Positions 1 to 61,487 of a DNA stretch of 64,000 bases are shown piece after piece. The stretch comes from Escherichia coli (lineage in GTDB: Bacteria > Pseudomonadota > Gammaproteobacteria > Enterobacterales > Enterobacteriaceae), in assembly GCF_003790525.1 (NCBI RefSeq), contig NZ_CP033635.1; one strand, given 5' to 3'. Position 1 is the first letter of the stretch. Each line of letters starts with the position of its first letter. The translations under genes were made by a program, and so were the position numbers. The notes below the pieces were generated by a model, which had not been told where the DNA came from, ran no database searches, and worked only from the letters and a program-made list of their open reading frames with translations.

Positions 1-2101
1 CTCCGTAGAGGACGTAATTCAGACGCTGTTTGAAGCCATCGTATTGGTGGTTTGCGTGATGTATTTATTCCTGCAAAACCTGCGTGCCACACTGATTCCG
101 GCGTTAGCTGTCCCCGTCGTTTTGCTGGGCACATTCGGCGTTCTTGCGTTGTTTGGCTATTCGATTAATACCCTGACGTTGTTTGCAATGGTGCTGGCGA
201 TCGGCTTGCTGGTGGACGATGCCATTGTGGTGGTAGAGAACGTCGAACGCATTATGCGTGACGAAGGGTTGCCCGCGCGTGAAGCCACGGAAAAATCAAT
301 GGGCGAGATTTCTGGCGCACTGGTTGCCATTGCGCTGGTGTTGTCAGCCGTATTCCTGCCGATGGCCTTCTTTGGGGAATCTACGGGCGTAATTTATCGT
401 CAGTTCTCCATCACCATCATCTCCGCAATGCTGCTTTCCGTGGTGGTGGCATTGACCTTGACTCCCGCCCTGTGCGGTTCCGTCCTCCAGCATGTTCCGC
501 CACATAAAAAAGGCTTTTTCGGCGCATTTAACCGCTTTTACCGCCGTACTGAAGATAAATATCAGCGAGGCGTAATTTATGTCCTGCGCCGTGCAGCCCG
601 AACGATGGGGCTTTATGTCGTGCTGGGTGGTGGAATGGCCCTGATGATGTGGAAACTGCCCGGCAGTTTCTTACCCACTGAAGACCAGGGCGAAATCATG
701 GTGCAGTACACGCTGCCGGCCGGGGCGACCGCTGCCCGTACAGCAGAAGTGAATCGCCAGATTGTTGACTGGTTCCTGATTAACGAGAAAGCAAATACCG
801 ATGTCATCTTTACCGTTGATGGTTTCAGTTTTAGCGGCAGCGGACAGAACACCGGGATGGCGTTTGTTTCGTTGAAAAACTGGTCTCAACGTAAAGGGGC
901 AGAAAACACCGCCCAGGCTATCGCCCTACGGGCAACCAAAGAGCTGGGCACAATTCGTGATGCGACGGTATTTGCGATGACGCCGCCAGCCGTTGATGGG
1001 CTGGGGCAAAGCAATGGTTTTACGTTTGAATTGTTAGCTAACGGTGGAACCGATCGTGAAACACTGCTGCAAATGCGTAATCAGTTGATAGAAAAAGCGA
1101 ATCAAAGTCCGGAGTTACATTCTGTACGCGCCAATGATTTGCCACAAATGCCGCAATTGCAGGTAGATATTGATAGCAATAAAGCGGTGTCATTAGGGTT
1201 GAGTTTGAATGATGTCACCGACACCCTGTCCAGTGCGTGGGGCGGTACTTATGTGAATGACTTTATTGACCGTGGTCGTGTGAAAAAAGTCTACATTCAG
1301 GGCGACAGCGAATTTCGTTCCGCGCCGTCAGACTTAGGTAAATGGTTTGTGCGCGGTAGCGATAACGCTATGACACCATTCTCTGCTTTTGCGACCACCC
1401 GCTGGCTGTATGGACCGGAAAGACTGGTGCGCTACAACGGCTCGGCAGCCTATGAAATTCAGGGCGAAAACGCGACTGGCTTTAGTTCCGGCGATGCAAT
1501 GACAAAAATGGAGGAACTGGCAAACAGTCTTCCTGCGGGAACAACCTGGGCCTGGAGTGGTTTGTCATTGCAGGAGAAACTGGCCAGCGGTCAGGCATTA
1601 AGTCTGTATGCAGTTTCTATTCTGGTGGTTTTCCTCTGCCTTGCAGCACTGTACGAAAGCTGGTCAGTCCCGTTCTCGGTCATTCTGGTGATCCCTCTGG
1701 GGCTTCTTGGCGCGGCGCTGGCGGCCTGGATGCGTGATTTAAACAACGACGTTTACTTCCAGGTAGCGCTATTAACTACTATCGGCTTGTCATCGAAAAA
1801 CGCCATTCTGATTGTGGAATTTGCTGAAGCGGCGGTTGCAGAGGGCTATTCCTTGAGTCGTGCGGCATTACGCGCGGCGCAGACTCGTTTACGCCCAATC
1901 ATCATGACCTCGCTGGCGTTTATTGCGGGGGTAATGCCGCTGGCGATAGCAACTGGCGCAGGGGCGAACAGCCGCATCGCCATTGGTACGGGCATTATTG
2001 GCGGCACGCTGACCGCTACATTACTGGCCATTTTCTTCGTTCCTCTGTTTTTTGTACTGGTGAAACGTTTGTTTGCCGGTAAACCGCGCCGTCAGGAGTA
2101 A
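1..2101 (+). CDS. RND (HAE1-type) multidrug efflux permease, 5'-truncated by the window edge (C-terminal ~700 aa present)
   Basis: Open frame from nt 2 to TAA at 2099-2101; translation matches AcrB/MexB-like transporters by eye ([14 protein letters not shown] motif, hydrophobic C-terminal TM bundle). Frame runs off the left edge. Confidence 0.85.
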
Positions 2102-2104
2102 GTT

Positions 2105-3505
2105 ATGTTGCGTCGTTCTCTTATTTTTCTGGTGTTGTTGAGTGCGGGATGTGTCTCGCTCGATCCTCACTACAGTACGCCTGAATCCCCAATCCCGGCG
2201 ACCTTGCCGGGAGCACAGGGCCAGGGGAAGGCAATCAGCCATGACTGGCAGCAGGTGATTCACGATCCCCGATTGCAGCAGGTGATTCACGATCCCCGAT
2301 TGCAGCAGGTAGTAACCATTGCACTGAACAGTAACCGCGATGTGCAAAAAGCGATTGCTGATATTGACTCAGCACGGGCGCTCTATGGGCAAACTAATGC
2401 GTCGTTATTTCCGACGGTGAATGCGGCCTTAAGTTCGACTCGCAGTCGTTCGCTGGCGAATGGTACGGGAACAACTGCCGAGGCTGACGGCACGGTGTCC
2501 AGTTATACGTTAGATCTGTTTGGTCGTAATCAGAGTTTATCTCGGGCGGCGCGGGAAACCTGGCTTGCCAGTGAATTTACAGCCCAGAACACTCGTTTAA
2601 CGCTGATTGCTGAAATCAGCACCGCCTGGCTGACACTGGCGGCTGATAACAGCAACCTGGCCCTGGCAAAAGAAACGATGGCCAGTGCAGAAAACTCATT
2701 GAAAATTATCCAGCGCCAGCAACAGGTTGGCACGGCGGCAGCGACAGATGTCAGTGAGGCGATGAGTGTTTATCAGCAAGCGCGCGCCAGCGTTGCCAGC
2801 TATCAGACACAAGTGATGCAGGATAAAAATGCGCTGAACTTACTGGCAGGTACAACGCTTGCGGAAAATCTGCTACCGGGAACACTGGAAAGCCTGCCGG
2901 AACAAATGATAAGTCTGGTTCCTGCGGGAGTATCATCTGATGTTCTGCTGCGTCGCCCGGATATCCAGGAAGCGGAACATAATTTGAAGAGCGCCAATGC
3001 CGATATTGGCGCGGCACGGGCTAACTTTTTCCCGACGATTTCGCTGACTGCCAGTGCCGGTGTTGGCAGTGACGCGTTGTCGTCGTTGTTCAGCCACGGA
3101 ATGCAGATCTGGTCATTTGCGCCATCGGTCACATTACCGCTGTTTACTGGCGGAAGTAATCTGGCGCAGCTTCGTTACGCAGAAGCACAAAAGCGTGGAC
3201 TCATTGCCACCTATGAAAAAACCGTTCAGAGCGCATTTAAAGATGTCGCTAACGCACTGGCGCGGCGGACCACGCTTGAAGAGCAACTGGATGCACAGCG
3301 CCAGTATGTTAAAGCTGAACAACAAACGGTCGATGTTGGCTTGCGTCGCTATCAGGCGGGTGTTGGTGATTACCTGACCGTGTTGACGGCGCAGCGCAGC
3401 TTGTGGAGCGCACAGCAGGAGCTGCTGGCACTGCAACTGACTGATTTTACAAACCGAATCACGCTCTGGCAGTCGCTGGGCGGCGGCATGTCATCACTCA
3501 AGTAA
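2105..3505 (+). CDS. Outer-membrane efflux lipoprotein (OprM/NodT family)
   Basis: 466-aa ORF starting 4 nt after the RND stop, AGGAG upstream; lipoprotein signal with lipobox (LSAGC); OprM-like blocks (DPRLQQV..ALNSNRDV, LLRRPDI.EAEH.L..ANA.IGAARA.FFP, SLW.AQQ); contains 27-bp tandem duplication. Confidence 0.85.
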   Translation: MLRRSLIFLVLLSAGCVSLDPHYSTPESPIPATLPGAQGQGKAISHDWQQVIHDPRLQQVIHDPRLQQVVTIALNSNRDVQKAIADIDSARALYGQTNASLFPTVNAALSSTRSRSLANGTGTTAEADGTVSSYTLDLFGRNQSLSRAARETWLASEFTAQNTRLTLIAEISTAWLTLAADNSNLALAKETMASAENSLKIIQRQQQVGTAAATDVSEAMSVYQQARASVASYQTQVMQDKNALNLLAGTTLAENLLPGTLESLPEQMISLVPAGVSSDVLLRRPDIQEAEHNLKSANADIGAARANFFPTISLTASAGVGSDALSSLFSHGMQIWSFAPSVTLPLFTGGSNLAQLRYAEAQKRGLIATYEKTVQSAFKDVANALARRTTLEEQLDAQRQYVKAEQQTVDVGLRRYQAGVGDYLTVLTAQRSLWSAQQELLALQLTDFTNRITLWQSLGGGMSSLK

Positions 3506-50952: not shown

Positions 50953-51705
50953 TCAGGCAACGTTACGCGTGTGACCAGCAAGCTGGGCCAGCGCATCGTT
51001 ATTTTCGATGGTGATGTATTTACCTTTGACTGCCAGCATACCGCTTTTCTGGAAGCGGCCCAGCAGACGGCTGATGGTTTCAACCGTCAGGCCCAGATAG
51101 TTACCGATATCACCACGAGTCATCGTCAGGCGGAATTCACGAGGGGAGAAGCCGCGTTGGGCAAAACGACGGGACAGGTTGTAGATGAATGCAGCCAGAC
51201 GTTCCTCGGCATTTTTCTTCGACAACAGCAGGATCATGTCCTGATCGCCTTTGATTTCACCGCTCATCAGACGCATCATCTGCTGACGCAGATTCGGCAT
51301 TTTACCGGACAAATCGTCCAGCGTTTCGAACGGGATTTCACATACCATCGAGGTTTCCAGCGCCTGAGCGAAGCTCGGGTGATGACCGCTGCCGATAGCG
51401 TCAAATCCCACCAGGTCGCCTGCTAAATGGAAACCAGTGATTTGCTCGTCGCCTTGCTCAGTGATGGTATAACTTTTAATCGTACCGGAGCGGATGGCAT
51501 AAAGCGATTTAAGTTCATCACCAGCCTTAAACAGCGTCTGGCCTTTCTGAATAGGCTTCTTCCGCTCAATGATATTATCAAGCTGATCAAGCTCATGTTC
51601 GTTGAGTGTGAACGGGATGCAAAGCTGGCTGATGCTGCAATCCTGGCAATGGATAGCACAACCGCCAGACTGAATGCGCCGTATAATTCGCTTTTCCGGG
51701 ATCAT
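50953..51705 (-). CDS. fnr: Fumarate/nitrate reduction regulator FNR
   Basis: Start set at [10 protein letters not shown] (250 aa); N-terminal Cys cluster for [4Fe-4S], CRP-family HTH. Confidence 0.95.
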
Positions 51706-51724
51706 AGGTCTGCTCAAGCCGTAA

Positions 51725-51738
51725 TTGATATTTGTCAA
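51725..51738. promoter_or_regulatory. FNR box at fnr promoter (autoregulation)
   Basis: TTGAT-ATTT-GTCAA matches TTGAT-N4-ATCAA, 20-33 bp upstream of fnr ATG. Confidence 0.6.
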
Positions 51739-51899
51739 TTTTAACATCTTTTTAGGGAGCAAGTAAGTCTAAGCAAACCTTAACAGCAGAGAATTCCGAT
51801 ATTAGATGTAAATATATGTCTATCTATTTGAAAACCCTTAAGTTGTTAAGGGTAACTTTACATAAAAGTGTGAACAAGCTGGCACAAATTGTTTAATGT

Positions 51900-52415
51900 T
51901 TACAGCAAAAGATAACCTTCGTGGCGCAATAACCACTCTTTTCGCTGAACTCCGCCTGCATATCCGGTCATGGTACCGTTTCTGCCAATGACCCGATGAC
52001 AAGGCACAACAATGCTGATGGGATTCGATCCATTTGCCGCACCTACGGCACGCGCCGCACCGGGGCGGCCCAATTGTTCAGCCAGTTGGCCGTAATGCAT
52101 TACCTGCCCGCAGGGGATTGTGCGTAATGTTTTCCAGACTTCGCGCTGAAATGGCGTCCCCCCCGTGGCAGTGGGAAGCGTATCAATAATGCTAAGATTA
52201 CCGGCAAAATATTCACGAAGCTTGTCGCTTAAACCACCTGGGTTGGTGGCAGAAATGCGCTCATAGCCTTCTTTGCGATAATGGATGTCCAGCAGCTGCA
52301 CCATGCGTTCGCTGTACTCTTCCCATTCAACCGCCCGCAGGCGAAATTGCTCATCGCAAATCACCCACAGTGGACCCAGTGGCGTGACAATTTTTTCTTC
52401 AAGTAATCTCAGCAT
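51900..52415 (-). CDS. ogt: O6-alkylguanine-DNA alkyltransferase Ogt
   Basis: 171-aa ORF with active-site PCHRV motif. Confidence 0.92.
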
Positions 52416-52425
52416 CCGTTCTCTC

Positions 52426-53952
52426 TTAAGACAAACGTGGGTAAATCCCCGGACCTATCGGCAGACCAACAAGATACCACGCCAGCAACATCAGCAGCCA
52501 TACCACCAAAAAGATAAGTGGATAGGGCAAAACTAACGAATAGTAAGTACCCAGTTTCGCGTCTGGTTTGTAGCGTTGCAGGAATCCAAGAAACAGTGGA
52601 ACAAAAGGAGATACTGGCGCTAAAGGCAATACGGATGAGTCGGCAATACGAAAGAGGATTTGCGCAAATGCCGGGTGAAAGCCAAGTAGCATAAACATCG
52701 GTACGAAAATGGGGGCCAGAATCGACCAGATTGCGGAACCGCTGGCGATAAACATGCATAAGAAAGAGGAAAGCAACGCCAGACCGACAAACGCCGGGAT
52801 GCCGCTAAGCCCTGAACTTTCCAGTATATCGGTCAGCCCCACGGCGATGAATTTCCCCATGTTGCTCCAGTTAAACATGGCGACAAACTGGGCGAGGGGA
52901 AAAACCATCACGATAAATCCCGCCATCTCTTTCATCGGTTCAATCATTAAATGCGGTAAATCCGCCTGACGTCGAATTGTGCGGGTAGCGATGCCATAAG
53001 CCAGCGAGACCACAAAGAAAAAAAGAATGATCAGTGGCACGATACCTTTAATAAAGGGTGATGGCATCACGGTGTGATTAATCGGATCGCGCAATATCCC
53101 GTTTTCCGGGATCACCATCAGCGCAATCGCAGCAATAAAAAGTAGCGATACGACACCTGCTATGCGTAAACCAAAACGCTGACTTTCGGTCAATGTCTGC
53201 AGTTTCTCATCGCTGTTTCCCTGCCATTGACCTAAACGTGGCTCAATGATTTTGTCGGTTATCAGGCCGCCAACAATCGTCAGTACGACTACGGAGCTGG
53301 CCATAAAATACCAGTTATCAATTACACTGACGTGCATTTGCGGATTGAACGCAGCCGCAGCCTCCGTGCTGATCCCCGACAGCAACACGTCGGTTGTGAC
53401 AATCAGTAAATTAGCCGTAAAGCCGCAACCTACGCCTGCAATGGCAGCCAGTAAACCTGCAACTGGATGCCTGCCCACCGCCAGAAAAATTAGCGCACCC
53501 ATCGGTGGCATGATCACTAACGCCGCATCGGAAGAAATGTGGCTGAAAAAAGCAATAAACAGCACCATATAACTGGCGTAGCGGGCATTAACATGCGATG
53601 CCATTTTAACCATTAGCGCTGGCAGTAAGCCTACGCGCTCCGCCAGACCGGCACCTAAAACCAGCGCCAGGATCGCACCAAGTGGAGCAAAACCGCTAAA
53701 GTTTTTAATAACATTGGGTAAAAACCAGTGTAATCCTTCCACACTGAGCAGGTTTTTCACCACCACCGGCGTACCATCGGCCGGGTTTTTCGCACTGACG
53801 CCAAAGGCTGACAAAATTGCCGTCGTCACCATGAGTACGATAATCAAATAGATAAAGAGCAAAAAAGGATGGGGAACCTTGTTACCAATTCTTTCGACCC
53901 AGCCATAGAGCTTCCCGGATTGGGAGGACGACGGTATGGATGACATACTCAT
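52426..53952 (-). CDS. abgT: p-Aminobenzoyl-glutamate transporter AbgT
   Basis: Start set at MSMSSIPSS (508 aa); polytopic membrane ORF. Confidence 0.88.
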
Positions 53953-53988
53953 GGGCATTCCTCGTTTGTTGTGTTTGCGTTGTTGTTG

Positions 53989-55434
53989 TTATTTTAAAGG
54001 TGACGGTGTCACGTTTTTCGGGATAGGGCAGTGATACGGTTGCGTGTCCGTAACTTGCTGATGCTCTTGTTGGCATTCTTGCAATAGCCCTGAATCAATG
54101 AAGAGATTAAGTGTGGTTGCTGCCATAGTTTTCGCCGCCAGCAGCATTCCTTTATGAGCAATAGATGTTCGCCCCTGGCTAACCAGTTGCCACGTATGTA
54201 GCGGGGTACCGACGGCAAAGCAGGGGCTGAAACACTGGGCAACAGGCAGTTTCCAACTGACGTCGCCGACATCAGTCGATGCCGCAAGCACGTTATCGGT
54301 GGCGGCATATGGAGCGACTTCATTCGCCAGTACCGTTTCACGATGACGTAGTGCAAAAGCCTTGCCGTTTTCGCCACCGGTTGCAGCGATATTATTCAGA
54401 CTGTTTTGCCGATCGTTGGGGGTGAGCGTAGCCTGAATTTGTTTCGCAAAAGCCAGTTCTTCGCAGTTCCATTCCGGGGTACCAAAATGGGATAGGGCTC
54501 GGTACATGGCATTTTCTAAGGTGCGATTCGGGAGATAACTGGAACAGGCTTTGTCGAAGCGGCATTCAACCGTGGTTTCGGTCATCAATGCCGCACCTTC
54601 GGCGATTTTGGCGACCCGATCATAAATATGCTGCACATCGGTCATTTCGGGGGCGCGGATAAGATAAAGCACTTCTGCCTGCGCCTGGACCACGTTGGGC
54701 GAGATCCCGCCGCTATCTGTGATGGCATAGTGTACGCGCGCTTTTTCAATAATATGTTCGTTGAGGAAGTTGGTGCCAGTGGTCATCAACGTTACGGCAT
54801 CAAGGGCGCTGCGTCCCAAATGAGGGGAATTCGCGGCATGTGCTGCGATCCCTTTAAAGCGCCATGATGCCTGAATGTTTGCCAGCGTGCGGGTATTGAA
54901 CATACCGGCAAAGGCTTCCGGGTGCCAGGTGAGTGCCGCATCCACATCATCAAATACCCCCTCGCGGACCATGAACGTTTTACCCGAGCCGCCTTCTTCG
55001 CCAGGACAACCATAAAAGCGCACCGTGCCGCCTTGCCCATATTGTTCCAGCCATTTCTTGACGGCTATTGCAGCGGCAAAGGCGGCGGTTCCCAGCAAAT
55101 TGTGTCCGCAACCGTGACCATTTTCACCGGGCGTCGCGGATGTAGGTTGCGCGCAACTTGCTTGCTGACTTAAACCTGCCAGGGCGTCATATTCCCCCAG
55201 CAGGGCGATAACCGGTTTGCCTTGACCAAACGAAGCAATAAAGGCATTTGGGATATTGCCTACGTTGCGGGTAACGGTGAAGCCTGCAGACTCCAGCGCC
55301 GAAGCCAGATGCTCCGCTGACCAGAACTCTTCAAAACGTGTTTCTGGATGATCCCAGATTTGATCGGCAATATCGGTATAACGTTGGCGATCGGCTTCAA
55401 TCGCATCGTCGATAAAACGATAGATTTCCTGCAT
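53989..55434 (-). CDS. abgB: p-Aminobenzoyl-glutamate hydrolase subunit B (M20)
   Basis: 481-aa M20-family ORF. Confidence 0.88.
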   Translation of the reverse strand: MQEIYRFIDDAIEADRQRYTDIADQIWDHPETRFEEFWSAEHLASALESAGFTVTRNVGNIPNAFIASFGQGKPVIALLGEYDALAGLSQQASCAQPTSATPGENGHGCGHNLLGTAAFAAAIAVKKWLEQYGQGGTVRFYGCPGEEGGSGKTFMVREGVFDDVDAALTWHPEAFAGMFNTRTLANIQASWRFKGIAAHAANSPHLGRSALDAVTLMTTGTNFLNEHIIEKARVHYAITDSGGISPNVVQAQAEVLYLIRAPEMTDVQHIYDRVAKIAEGAALMTETTVECRFDKACSSYLPNRTLENAMYRALSHFGTPEWNCEELAFAKQIQATLTPNDRQNSLNNIAATGGENGKAFALRHRETVLANEVAPYAATDNVLAASTDVGDVSWKLPVAQCFSPCFAVGTPLHTWQLVSQGRTSIAHKGMLLAAKTMAATTLNLFIDSGLLQECQQEHQQVTDTQPYHCPIPKNVTPSPLK

Positions 55435-56744
55435 CAGATACCTCGCGTCCAGGGAAAATTGAGCGCGGTGCGCGCCAGCGTTTCGACGGCAATAGCGAGA
55501 ACCTGCTCGTCAAAATCGAATTTTTCATTGTGATGACCTGCCGCCAGCTGTGTGCCAAATACCATGTAGGAGGCTTGCCCTTGATGTCGCTGCACGCGGG
55601 CCATCATTAATGTGGCATCTTCGGAACCCGCAGGCGCTTCAACACGTTCAATGGCCTGATTGACCCCCGCGACCTGAGCCGCCTGGATTTGCAACCATGC
55701 GACCCATTGCGGCGAAGGAGAACTGGCGGTAGCAGCACCCATCAGACGAGTTTCAACGCCGACACCATACATGGTTGCTGCGCCCTGAATCGCTTGTTGT
55801 GCACGTTCAAAAACATATTGATTAATGACGTCGCTGGCCCCGCGTGTTTCCACTTTCAGCAACGCCGAGGCAGGAACAACATTACGACCGCTTCCTGCCT
55901 GCATAACGCCCACGTTTACTCTGGAAGCGCCTTCGCTGTGCGGGGCGATTGCATGCAGTGCAAGAGTTGCTTGTGCTGCCGCCAACAAGGCATTGTGACC
56001 GTCTTCTGGTTTTGCGCCTGCGTGAGCGGCGGTCCCGGTGAAGTGCGCGTCAAATTTGGTGGTTGCCATAAAATTATCACTGCCGCACACCACGGTGCCC
56101 GCAGGTACGCCAGTGCCAATGTGCACGGCAGTAAAATAATCAACATCATCTACGACACCTGCATCGACCATCGCCCGCGCGCCACGCGTACCTTCCTCTG
56201 CAGGCTGAAAAATCAGTTTGATGACGCCATGTAGTCCGGACTCGAATTGTTTAAGGGTATGCGCCAGCCCAAGCCCAATGGCGGTATGCCCATCATGACC
56301 ACAGGCATGCATCATTCCGGCGTTACATGACGCAAAACCGTCGCGGTAGGGGCGATGGCTGACATCCTGCTCTTCACTGAGATCCAGCGCGTCCATATCG
56401 ACACGGAAAGCCATCACCGGACCGGGGCGACCAGTATCCAGGGTAGCGACGATGCCAGTGAAACCGCCTTCAAAAGCCGCAATCCATTGTTCTAGCGCCC
56501 CCTGTTGACGAGCGCGCTCGAATTCGCGTTGTAGAGTGAATTCATCAGGTAATCCCATCCGGCTACTTTCATTAACGACTTCGCGGCCCAGCGCCAGTGA
56601 ATAACCGAGCTGGTGCAATTCTTCCGCAACAACGGTGGCAGTGCGGAATTCCACCCAGCCAGACTCTGCATAGTGGTGAAAATCACGTCGCCAGTGCGAT
56701 AATTTTGGGGCAAGCGAATTAATAAATTGATTCAAAGACTCCAT
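55434..56744 (-). CDS. abgA: p-Aminobenzoyl-glutamate hydrolase subunit A (M20)
   Basis: Start set at MESLNQF (436 aa) with GGGAAAGG upstream. Confidence 0.88.
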   Translation of the reverse strand: MESLNQFINSLAPKLSHWRRDFHHYAESGWVEFRTATVVAEELHQLGYSLALGREVVNESSRMGLPDEFTLQREFERARQQGALEQWIAAFEGGFTGIVATLDTGRPGPVMAFRVDMDALDLSEEQDVSHRPYRDGFASCNAGMMHACGHDGHTAIGLGLAHTLKQFESGLHGVIKLIFQPAEEGTRGARAMVDAGVVDDVDYFTAVHIGTGVPAGTVVCGSDNFMATTKFDAHFTGTAAHAGAKPEDGHNALLAAAQATLALHAIAPHSEGASRVNVGVMQAGSGRNVVPASALLKVETRGASDVINQYVFERAQQAIQGAATMYGVGVETRLMGAATASSPSPQWVAWLQIQAAQVAGVNQAIERVEAPAGSEDATLMMARVQRHQGQASYMVFGTQLAAGHHNEKFDFDEQVLAIAVETLARTALNFPWTRGI

Positions 56745-56919
56745 AACCTTTCCCGTCATCAGTAAAAAGTGTGACCCGGTTCACGTAGCGATAGTTTTTA
56801 CTTATCACTAACTGATTTTTCACAGTTTTAACCGTTCATAAATTACCCTGACACAATCATCTGCATTAAAGTAGATGCCAGTTTCTTTGGTCTGATAAAT
56901 AACGGTTATCGGTGGCGTC

Positions 56920-57828
56920 ATGGCTTTTCAGGTAAAAATTCATCAAATTCGGGCTTTTGTTGAAGTGGCTCGTCAGGGCAGCATTCGCGGAGCGAGCCGA
57001 ATGTTGAATATGTCGCAACCGGCACTGAGTAAATCTATTCAGGAACTGGAAGAAGGGTTGGCGGCACAACTCTTTTTTCGCCGTAGTAAAGGCGTGACGT
57101 TAACTGATGCCGGTGAAAGTTTTTATCAGCACGCCAGTCTTATTCTTGAAGAGCTGCGCGCAGCGCAAGAGGATATTCGCCAACGACAAGGGCAACTGGC
57201 AGGGCAAATTAATATCGGCATGGGGGCCAGTATTTCCCGCAGTCTGATGCCAGCTGTCATATCTCGTTTTCATCAGCAGCATCCGCAGGTAAAAGTACGC
57301 ATTATGGAAGGGCAACTGGTGTCGATGATTAATGAATTGCGCCAGGGAGAACTGGATTTCACCATCAATACCTATTATCAGGGACCCTACGACCACGAAT
57401 TTACTTTTGAGAAATTACTGGAAAAGCAATTCGCGATCTTTTGCCGCCCGGGACATCCCGCCATTGGTGCCCGTTCGATCAAACAGTTACTGGACTACAG
57501 CTGGACAATGCCGACGCCACACGGCAGCTACTACAAACAGTTGAGTGAATTGCTTGACGATCAGGCGCAAACGCCACAGGTCGGCGTAGTCTGCGAGACG
57601 TTCTCAGCCTGTATCAGTCTGGTGGCAAAAAGCGATTTTCTCAGCATACTACCTGAAGAAATGGGCTGCGATCCCTTGCACGGACAGGGGCTGGTGATGT
57701 TGCCGGTTAGCGAAATTTTACCGAAAGCGACCTATTATTTGATTCAGCGGCGTGATAGTCGCCAGACACCACTGACCGCGTCATTAATCACGCAATTTCG
57801 GCGAGAATGCGGCTATCTGCAAAGTTAA
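56920..57828 (+). CDS. abgR: LysR-family regulator AbgR
   Basis: 302-aa ORF, divergent from abgABT; LysR HTH. Confidence 0.9.
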   Translation: MAFQVKIHQIRAFVEVARQGSIRGASRMLNMSQPALSKSIQELEEGLAAQLFFRRSKGVTLTDAGESFYQHASLILEELRAAQEDIRQRQGQLAGQINIGMGASISRSLMPAVISRFHQQHPQVKVRIMEGQLVSMINELRQGELDFTINTYYQGPYDHEFTFEKLLEKQFAIFCRPGHPAIGARSIKQLLDYSWTMPTPHGSYYKQLSELLDDQAQTPQVGVVCETFSACISLVAKSDFLSILPEEMGCDPLHGQGLVMLPVSEILPKATYYLIQRRDSRQTPLTASLITQFRRECGYLQS

Positions 57829-57836
57829 AACTGCAT

Positions 57837-57931
57837 AAAAAAAATAGAGTCTGTCGACATCCGCCAGACTCTACAGTACACACAGCAGTGCATCCGCGTC
57901 TTAAATCCGGCATGGTCTCCTCTGCGCCGGT
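57837..57931 (-). ncRNA. mcaS: Small RNA McaS (IsrA)
   Basis: Minus-strand sequence matches McaS as I recall it (5' ACCGGCGCAGAGGAGAC...); terminal hairpin AGAGTCTGGCGGATGTCGACAGACTCT plus U8; sits between abgR and smrA. Confidence 0.8.
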
Positions 57932-58158
57932 GACTGTGTTATAACGGTTTTAACCTTTAGTTGCCAATTTTCTTCAGTGACAGATTTCACGAAAATATAA
58001 GTTACATTATTAATATAGTGAATGAATAATCATGCATAAGCATTTTGCTTAAAATATCGGCAACATTTGGAACTTATTACTGGAAATTTGGGTAATACGT
58101 TGTTGGACCAGCCCGGTCTGGTTATCATATCGCGCTCTTAATTGCGGGAGGATGTAAC

Positions 58159-58722
58159 ATGAACCTTGACGACAAATCGCTGTTTCTTGACGCCATGGAA
58201 GATGTCCAGCCGCTGAAACGTGCTACAGATGTCCACTGGCATCCAACGCGTAACCAACGTGCGCCGCAGCGTATCGACACGCTGCAACTTGATAATTTCC
58301 TCACCACTGGATTTCTCGACATCATCCCGCTAACTCAGCCGCTGGAGTTTCGGCGGGAAGGGTTGCAACATGGGGTGCTGGATAAGCTGCGCAGTGGTAA
58401 ATACCCGCAACAGGCGAGCCTGAATCTTTTGCGCCAGCCGGTGGAAGAGTGCCGCAAAATGGTGTTCAGTTTCATTCAACAAGCCCTGGCGGATGGTTTG
58501 CGTAATGTGCTGATTATTCATGGTAAAGGGCGGGAAGATAAATCGCATGCCAATATTGTCCGCAGCTATGTGGCGCGCTGGTTGACCGAATTTGATGATG
58601 TCCAGGCATATTGTACCGCGCTACCGCATCATGGCGGCAGCGGGGCGTGTTACGTCGCACTACGTAAAACGGCACAGGCAAAGCAAGAAAACTGGGAGCG
58701 CCACGCTAAGCGCAGTCGTTGA
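58159..58722 (+). CDS. smrA: Smr-domain DNA endonuclease SmrA (YdaL)
   Basis: 187-aa ORF with C-terminal Smr domain. Confidence 0.85.
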   Translation: MNLDDKSLFLDAMEDVQPLKRATDVHWHPTRNQRAPQRIDTLQLDNFLTTGFLDIIPLTQPLEFRREGLQHGVLDKLRSGKYPQQASLNLLRQPVEECRKMVFSFIQQALADGLRNVLIIHGKGREDKSHANIVRSYVARWLTEFDDVQAYCTALPHHGGSGACYVALRKTAQAKQENWERHAKRSR

Positions 58723-61272: not shown

Positions 61273-61309
61273 ATAAACTCTCTACCCATTCAGGGCAATA
61301 TCTCCCTTG

Positions 61310-61419
61310 CAGGTGAATGCAACGTCAAGCGATGGGCGTTGCGCTCCATATTGTCTTACTTCCTTTTTTGAATTACTGCATAGCACAATTGATTCGTACG
61401 ACGCCGACTTTGATGAGTC
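61310..61419 (+). ncRNA. fnrS: Small RNA FnrS
   Basis: Matches FnrS as I recall it (GCAGGUGAAUGCAACGUCAAGCGAUGGGCG...); terminal hairpin GCCGACTTTGATGAGTCGGC plus U8; between zntB and dbpA. Confidence 0.85.
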
Positions 61420-61487
61420 GGCTTTTTTTTGCCTGTTATATATCAGCGTCTACCCTTTAAGAGTCCACCCAATGACCGGAGGGAAAT

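Follow-up and report, generated by a model that had tools for sequence, protein, structure and literature searches.

The mcaS small RNA gene between abgR and smrA in an Escherichia coli genome and the strand asymmetry of its terminator

The nucleotide sequence found at positions 57837 to 57931 (minus strand) of the window, the whole stretch of 64,000 nucleotides from E. coli contig NZ_CP033635.1 that was analyzed, is mcaS, the orthologue of the E. coli K-12 gene b4426. It shows all the testable defining features of the McaS family and is therefore an already known gene. It is very probable that the locus as a whole consists of an mcaS gene with a sigma-70-type promoter accompanied by a CRP-like box and with a canonical intrinsic terminator of its own, rather than a canonical bidirectional one. 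The identity, anatomy and conservation of the sRNA and the asymmetry of the two strands at its terminator were established here, and the targets, the binding of Hfq and CsrA and the control by CRP are taken from the cited papers.

The first-pass annotation had placed the McaS sRNA on the minus strand at 57837-57931 and had proposed an Rfam scan and an alignment to K-12 mcaS as ways of checking it. Both agreed with the assignment. A cmscan search of the whole window identified RF00115 (McaS/IsrA) at 57836..57931 on the minus strand with 112.3 bits, a significant match to the family (gathering score, 42; E value, 4.6e-20). The match extends over model positions 1-96 of 96, and every consensus pair is a standard base pair. 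In K-12 MG1655 the annotation places mcaS (b4426) on the minus strand, at 1405658..1405751, flanked by abgR (plus strand, ending at 1405649) and smrA (plus strand). A 390-nt alignment covering the gene and its promoter showed 99% identity between the window and K-12. Two differences fall within the sRNA. One is A18C, located in the stem-loop 1 loop, and the other is an additional T that lengthens the U-run from seven residues to eight. Taking this extra T into consideration, the K-12 annotation maps exactly onto 57837..57931. Everything else that was compared is shared with the K-12 RNA (IsrA, IS061; b4426; RF00115), including the abgR/mcaS/smrA locus, the promoter from about -75 to +1, the layout with three hairpins, the four GGA motifs, the csgD-complementary segment and the terminator hairpin. 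The RefSeq annotation of identical DNA names the genes abgR, smrA and dgcM. The Rfam scan of the whole window produced two matches above the gathering score. The other one was the FnrS sRNA (RF01796), full length, at 61309..61426 on the plus strand with 134.8 bits (gathering score, 60), located downstream of zntB as it is in K-12. The features of the mcaS locus are listed below in order of position.

56920..57828, plus strand: abgR, coding for a LysR-family regulator, the convergent neighbor (ORF list, RefSeq annotation of identical DNA, K-12)
57826..57828, plus strand: TAA stop codon of abgR
57837..57931, minus strand: mcaS (McaS/IsrA/IS061 sRNA), 95 nt, 5′ end at 57931 and 3′ end in the U-run (Rfam and K-12 alignment)
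57837..57844, minus strand: U8 run that completes the intrinsic terminator, expected Hfq-binding 3′ tail; T-tail score 5.39; U7 in K-12
57845..57873, minus strand: terminator hairpin (McaS nt 59-87), 29 nt, -13.9 kcal/mol, fourth GGA motif in the loop
57877..57892, minus strand: csgD-complementary segment (McaS nt 40-55, UGCACUGCUGUGUGUA), a 16-nt perfect Watson-Crick complement
57880..57899, minus strand: stem-loop 2 (McaS nt 33-52; Rfam consensus), third GGA motif inside
57907..57930, minus strand: stem-loop 1 (McaS nt 2-25; Rfam consensus), first GGA motif (nt 12-14) and A18C in the loop
57938..57943, minus strand: mcaS -10 hexamer TATAAC, at -12..-7, same in K-12
57962..57967, minus strand: -35-like TTGGCA, 18-nt spacer to the -10 hexamer, same in K-12, assigned by position only
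57977..57990, no strand assigned: CRP-like palindrome GTGA-N6-TCAC, a candidate site centered at -52.5 from the annotated start, same in K-12
58159..58722, plus strand: smrA, the divergent neighbor on the mcaS promoter side (ORF list, RefSeq, K-12)

The Rfam alignment shows the layout of McaS in full: after two stem-loops in the 5′ part come the Rho-independent terminator hairpin and the U-run. The minimum free energy structure of the single sequence (-33.1 kcal/mol, z = -2.96) reproduced the terminator hairpin, and it paired the 5′ half of the molecule, which includes stem-loop 2, differently from the Rfam consensus. GGA motifs are present at nt 12, 24, 37 and 70, all four of them intact, in agreement with the four GGA motifs described for McaS, two of which are CsrA binding sites (PMC10729762). 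McaS nt 40-55 are perfectly complementary over 16 nt to positions -96..-81 of the csgD leader, the leader sequence used being that of K-12 and not that of the source strain; the longest complement found in 500 shuffled sequences was 9 nt. This complement is in line with the direct pairing and repression of csgD reported for McaS (PMC3634460). For the flhD leader, between 78 and 129 of 300 shuffled sequences were as good in duplex energy, and the longest contiguous complement was 5 nt. Simple tests of this kind are ill-suited to flhD, where the published pairing is imperfect and involves two sites. McaS is known to act in trans on csgD, flhD and CsrA (PMC3634460, PMC10729762). Following the literature, the RNA encoded in the window would pair with the csgD leader to lower curli synthesis, would pair with the flhD leader to raise motility, and would bind CsrA through its GGA motifs to raise the synthesis of PGA.

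A segment of stem-loop 1 resembles a translation start. McaS nt 11-21 (57911..57921, minus strand; AGGAGACCAUG) could be read as a Shine-Dalgarno sequence plus a start codon, which would give McaS a second function as the mRNA of a small peptide. The SD-like AGGAG is located 3 nt before an AUG (McaS nt 19-21) that opens a 41-codon reading frame at 57788..57913 on the minus strand. This frame continues through the terminator without meeting a stop codon within the sRNA. Its AUG is lacking in the second E. coli allele described below, in E. albertii and E. whittamii, and in Citrobacter and Pseudescherichia. In addition, AGGA in McaS is a reported CsrA-binding motif (PMC10729762). For want of a conserved AUG and of a stop codon within the RNA, a coding role for this segment was rejected, and the chance that McaS encodes a peptide is negligible.

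The mcaS promoter was placed by position and by its identity to K-12. Transcription would proceed on the minus strand from TTGGCA-18-TATAAC, with the CRP-like box upstream, to produce an Hfq-dependent sRNA. The -10 hexamer is conserved in Escherichia and reads TATAAG or TATAAA in Citrobacter. The CRP-like box is conserved in Escherichia and Citrobacter and is degenerate in the Pseudescherichia group. McaS is reported to belong to the CRP regulon (PMC3634460), and both the CRP-dependent expression and the Hfq dependence of McaS have been reported (PMC3634460, PMC11782564). The center of the box, at -52.5, is outside the usual class I and class II positions (-61.5 and -41.5). A rule-based promoter scan missed the mcaS promoter, since its rule demands a final T that TATAAC does not have. 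The consensus scan of the region between mcaS and smrA identified two promoter-like sites, TTCACT-17-TATATT on the minus strand (58022..57994) and GTTACA-18-AATAAT on the plus strand (58001..58030), the latter a candidate smrA promoter. These two sites overlap (57994..58030), and the number of sites was no higher than in shuffled sequences.

A 96-nt mcaS query matched 5304 of 5426 complete E. coli genomes, and 122 had no match. Identity was at least 99% in 362 of the 5304 genomes, 95-99% in 4149 and 90-95% in 793. Judged by these identity bands, the exact allele of the window is a minority one. Six of the 5309 mcaS matches were in records labeled as plasmids, and a few genomes had two copies. 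A second E. coli allele, found for example in strains 90-3040, EC9682, U1 and E69, has a rewritten stem-loop 1 (ACCGGUCACMAGGACCCCAGGCCGG) in which the G7-U20 pair is replaced by C7-G20, a compensatory change, and the GGA motif is kept in the loop. This allele agrees with the K-12 type in the promoter block, in all positions from nt 26 and in the terminator. The surroundings differ: in strains 90-3040, EC9682 and U1 the place of smrA upstream is taken by AraC-family genes together with HlyD or MFS genes, and abgR is often only a remnant. The loci concerned are L002 1370-1650 (90-3040), L003 1360-1640 (EC9682) and L004 1354-1634 (U1). The second allele and the K-12 type are again identical from about 75 nt before the start site, which indicates that the promoter block travels with the sRNA. 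In E. coli strains where abgR is reduced to a 196-nt remnant or pseudogene, mcaS and its terminator are still kept. In E. coli ETEC1739 (NZ_CP122758.1; locus L005, about 1560-2380) an IS1 element was found inside the terminator hairpin of mcaS, where it separates the body of the sRNA from the U-run and from abgR.

Conservation beyond E. coli was studied through a fixed-core pattern search that used one genome per species and produced 32 loci. The McaS gathering score was exceeded at 12 of 12 enterobacterial loci (74.7-108.7 bits) and at none of four non-enteric controls. The 12 loci came from E. coli, E. albertii, E. whittamii, two Escherichia sp., Citrobacter amalonaticus, a Citrobacter MAG, Pseudescherichia vulneris and UBA7338. 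At all 12, smrA adjoins the promoter side of mcaS, a linkage present in every genus examined. The terminator hairpin was also kept at all 12 apart from G·U substitutions, an invariance that is partly imposed because the search pattern fixed 19 of the hairpin bases; the csgD-pairing segment lies outside the pattern. From nt 44 to the U-run the sequence is nearly invariant, with only nt 47, 62 and 82 varying, each in some of the sequences, and the 5′ part is variable. Within the csgD-pairing segment, nt 44-55, which make up most of it, are nearly invariant, and nt 40-43 vary in Citrobacter (15 sequences, four genera). In Citrobacter and Pseudescherichia, stem-loop 1 is placed out of register by MAFFT. 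The covariation count over the 15 sequences was not above that of shuffles, the terminator being invariant and partly fixed by the search pattern.

The substitutions in the terminator stem are informative with regard to the strand on which the hairpin is maintained. The stem is paired in 100% of the alignment cells of the 15 sequences, and the only changes are A82G, in nine of them, and A62G, in one. In the McaS sense both produce G·U pairs and the stem keeps -12.4 to -13.3 kcal/mol. Read in antisense, the same changes give C·A mismatches, and the stem falls to -8.8 or -4.0 kcal/mol. The G·U substitutions spare only the stem in the McaS sense, which indicates that the McaS strand is the one on which the hairpin is maintained, whether or not a convergent gene is present.

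An intrinsic terminator is composed of a hairpin followed by a U-tract. The McaS transcript would end at a terminator of this kind, the 29-nt hairpin and then U8. As the first-pass annotation had described it, the hairpin and U-run abut the abgR stop codon (57828): the 3′ end of McaS at 57837 is 8 nt away, and the hairpin begins 16 nt after the stop. The same annotation had added that the element probably terminates both convergent transcripts, a proposal that the sequence does not support. The hairpin is nearly palindromic and folds with -13.9 kcal/mol whichever strand is transcribed, in the window as well as in K-12, so that one of the two components of a canonical bidirectional terminator, a stable hairpin in the RNA of either strand, is present. 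The other one, a U-tract after the hairpin on both strands, is found on the McaS side only, and the comparative data favor McaS. On the minus strand TTTTTTTT comes next after the hairpin; its T-tail score of 5.39 is reached by 0.003% of the 15-mers in the window. On the plus strand, the abgR side, the flank of the hairpin reads CAGTACACACAG and the sequence that follows the hairpin (CAGTACACACAGCAG) has one T in its first eight bases; its T-tail score, 0.19, is equaled or exceeded by 69% of the window 15-mers. When hairpin energy and T-tail score were considered, the plus strand showed no other hairpin followed by a T-run from the abgR stop codon to the smrA start (58159). These explicit values, calculated for both strands, replaced a rule-based terminator scan of 57300..58400 that reported no sites. 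That scan also missed the genuine McaS terminator, because in the stem of that terminator an internal bulge adjoins a 2-bp apical stem, and the zero count of the scan is therefore no evidence. As the transcript from the abgR side meets the same hairpin without a U-tract, the element is not a canonical bidirectional intrinsic terminator. It is a canonical intrinsic terminator for McaS and not for abgR. With the canonical bidirectional terminators, composed of an A-tract, a hairpin and a T-tract, it shares the stable, near-palindromic hairpin between convergent units and, read from abgR, an A-run on the upstream side of the hairpin. It differs from them in that the T-tract is missing on the abgR side, where the csgD-pairing segment of McaS is found instead. 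Because the plus-strand flank is the complement of that invariant segment, it cannot easily become U-rich.

The gene order downstream of mcaS varies among the loci compared. No abgR-like sequence was detected next to mcaS at 10 of the 12 other enterobacterial loci, and the remaining two, E. coli E69 and C. amalonaticus S646, have only a remnant. The match in C. amalonaticus S646 was considered as an intact convergent gene and rejected after translation, which showed a C-terminal remnant (aa 161-302) with stop codons upstream. At seven of the 12 loci ogt follows mcaS in the same direction after 57-64 nt, where a convergent gene would otherwise lie; this arrangement, with fnr next, is found in C. 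amalonaticus ku and AUH, the Citrobacter MAG, P. vulneris, UBA7338 and Escherichia sp. ESNIH1. In Escherichia species other than E. coli, ogt is located 200-260 nt after mcaS. The order outside E. coli is smrA, mcaS, ogt, fnr (loci L008, L012, L017, L018, L028 and L033). In the window (50953..57828) the abgR-abgABT cluster, at 52426..57828, is located between mcaS and ogt (51900..52415). Because abgR remnants adjoin mcaS in several lineages, the comparison suggests that the cluster was lost repeatedly rather than gained once.

The hairpin is equally stable in the abgR sense and lies 16 nt past the stop codon, and it should consequently form in any abgR transcript that reaches that far. Such transcripts would probably pause, or end inefficiently, at the hairpin or beyond it, and the abgR 3′ end could depend on Rho, on polymerases that arrive from mcaS and collide with those from abgR, or on exonucleases that trim the RNA back as far as the hairpin. 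The published Term-seq and related 3′-end supplements that were searched gave no entry for abgR or mcaS and hence no mapped 3′ end of abgR, a negative that carries no information; the names of the neighboring genes are missing from the Adams et al. files too. In the literature searched, the one statement that links the two genes comes from a secondary source: according to PMC4281340, which cites Thomason et al. 2012, McaS has an overlap with the 3′ UTR of abgR and no effect on the abgR mRNA. If this statement is taken at face value, abgR transcripts reach into mcaS. The same source offers a parallel in GadY and gadX, another sRNA gene convergent with the mRNA of a regulator and near or overlapping its 3′ end; the difference is that GadY is reported there to stabilize the gadX mRNA, while McaS is reported to have no effect on that of abgR.

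The hairpin could nonetheless be a functional two-way terminator for both McaS and the abgR mRNA, with a non-canonical abgR side that acts either as a pause site for collision or as a weak terminator made of the hairpin only. Its location between convergent units so close to the abgR stop, its equal stability on the plus and minus strands in the source strain, and the lack of other terminator-like elements on the plus strand before smrA fit this explanation, as does the overlap with the abgR 3′ UTR mentioned in PMC4281340. There is also a precedent: convergent E. coli genes have been described by the Liu laboratory that end at bidirectional terminators without the features of intrinsic terminators, where hairpin-directed pausing and collision of polymerases drive termination (bioRxiv 10.1101/2022.10.23.513370). 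Collision-type bidirectional terminators (Ju et al. 2019; Wang et al. 2022) are defined by a hairpin-encoding element between convergent units that has no intrinsic-terminator features and does not depend on Rho, together with overlapping 3′ ends and a dependence on convergent transcription. The hairpin between convergent units and the missing U-tract on the abgR side would fit such an element, and the McaS side is a normal intrinsic terminator. However, a plus strand devoid of a U-tract, with its low tail score of 0.19, speaks against the two-way terminator, as do the conservation of the element where no intact convergent gene exists, the G·U substitutions that weaken only the antisense stem, and the failure to find a mapped abgR 3′ end in the 3′-end datasets searched. 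Furthermore, collision needs active mcaS transcription, which is conditional. On balance, we consider a functional two-way terminator unlikely. The alternative that abgR transcripts pass the hairpin and continue antisense through mcaS, to end by Rho action in the untranslated stretch or to enter smrA, is a serious possibility, short of an even chance. Such transcription would produce RNA fully complementary to McaS and interfere at the mcaS promoter. In its favor are the lack of a U-tract after the hairpin and of any other canonical plus-strand terminator up to smrA at 58159, a gene that is co-directional with abgR, and the overlap of McaS with the abgR 3′ UTR stated in PMC4281340. However, that source also reports that McaS has no effect on the abgR mRNA. 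The Adams et al. supplements list no Rho-termination region for the locus, but as the neighboring gene names are missing from them as well, this absence carries no information. There is, finally, a slim chance that the hairpin is a conditional stop of the collision or pause type, at which CRP-driven transcription of mcaS decides whether abgR transcripts end or read on antisense into smrA. Were this the case, the carbon status of the cell would be coupled to the expression of abgR and smrA and to the levels of McaS.

The explanation that we favor for the locus is an mcaS gene that ends at its own canonical intrinsic terminator. The result mainly confirms the annotation: the strain has an intact copy, here a minority allele, of a characterized regulator of the switch between motility and biofilm that acts on csgD, on flhDC and, through CsrA, on PGA synthesis. 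The comparative work makes two modest additions. One is that the sRNA, and not the convergent neighbor, is what the terminator is maintained for. The other is that the flank on the abgR side is locked by the pairing of McaS with csgD, which explains why abgR has no canonical terminator at this place.
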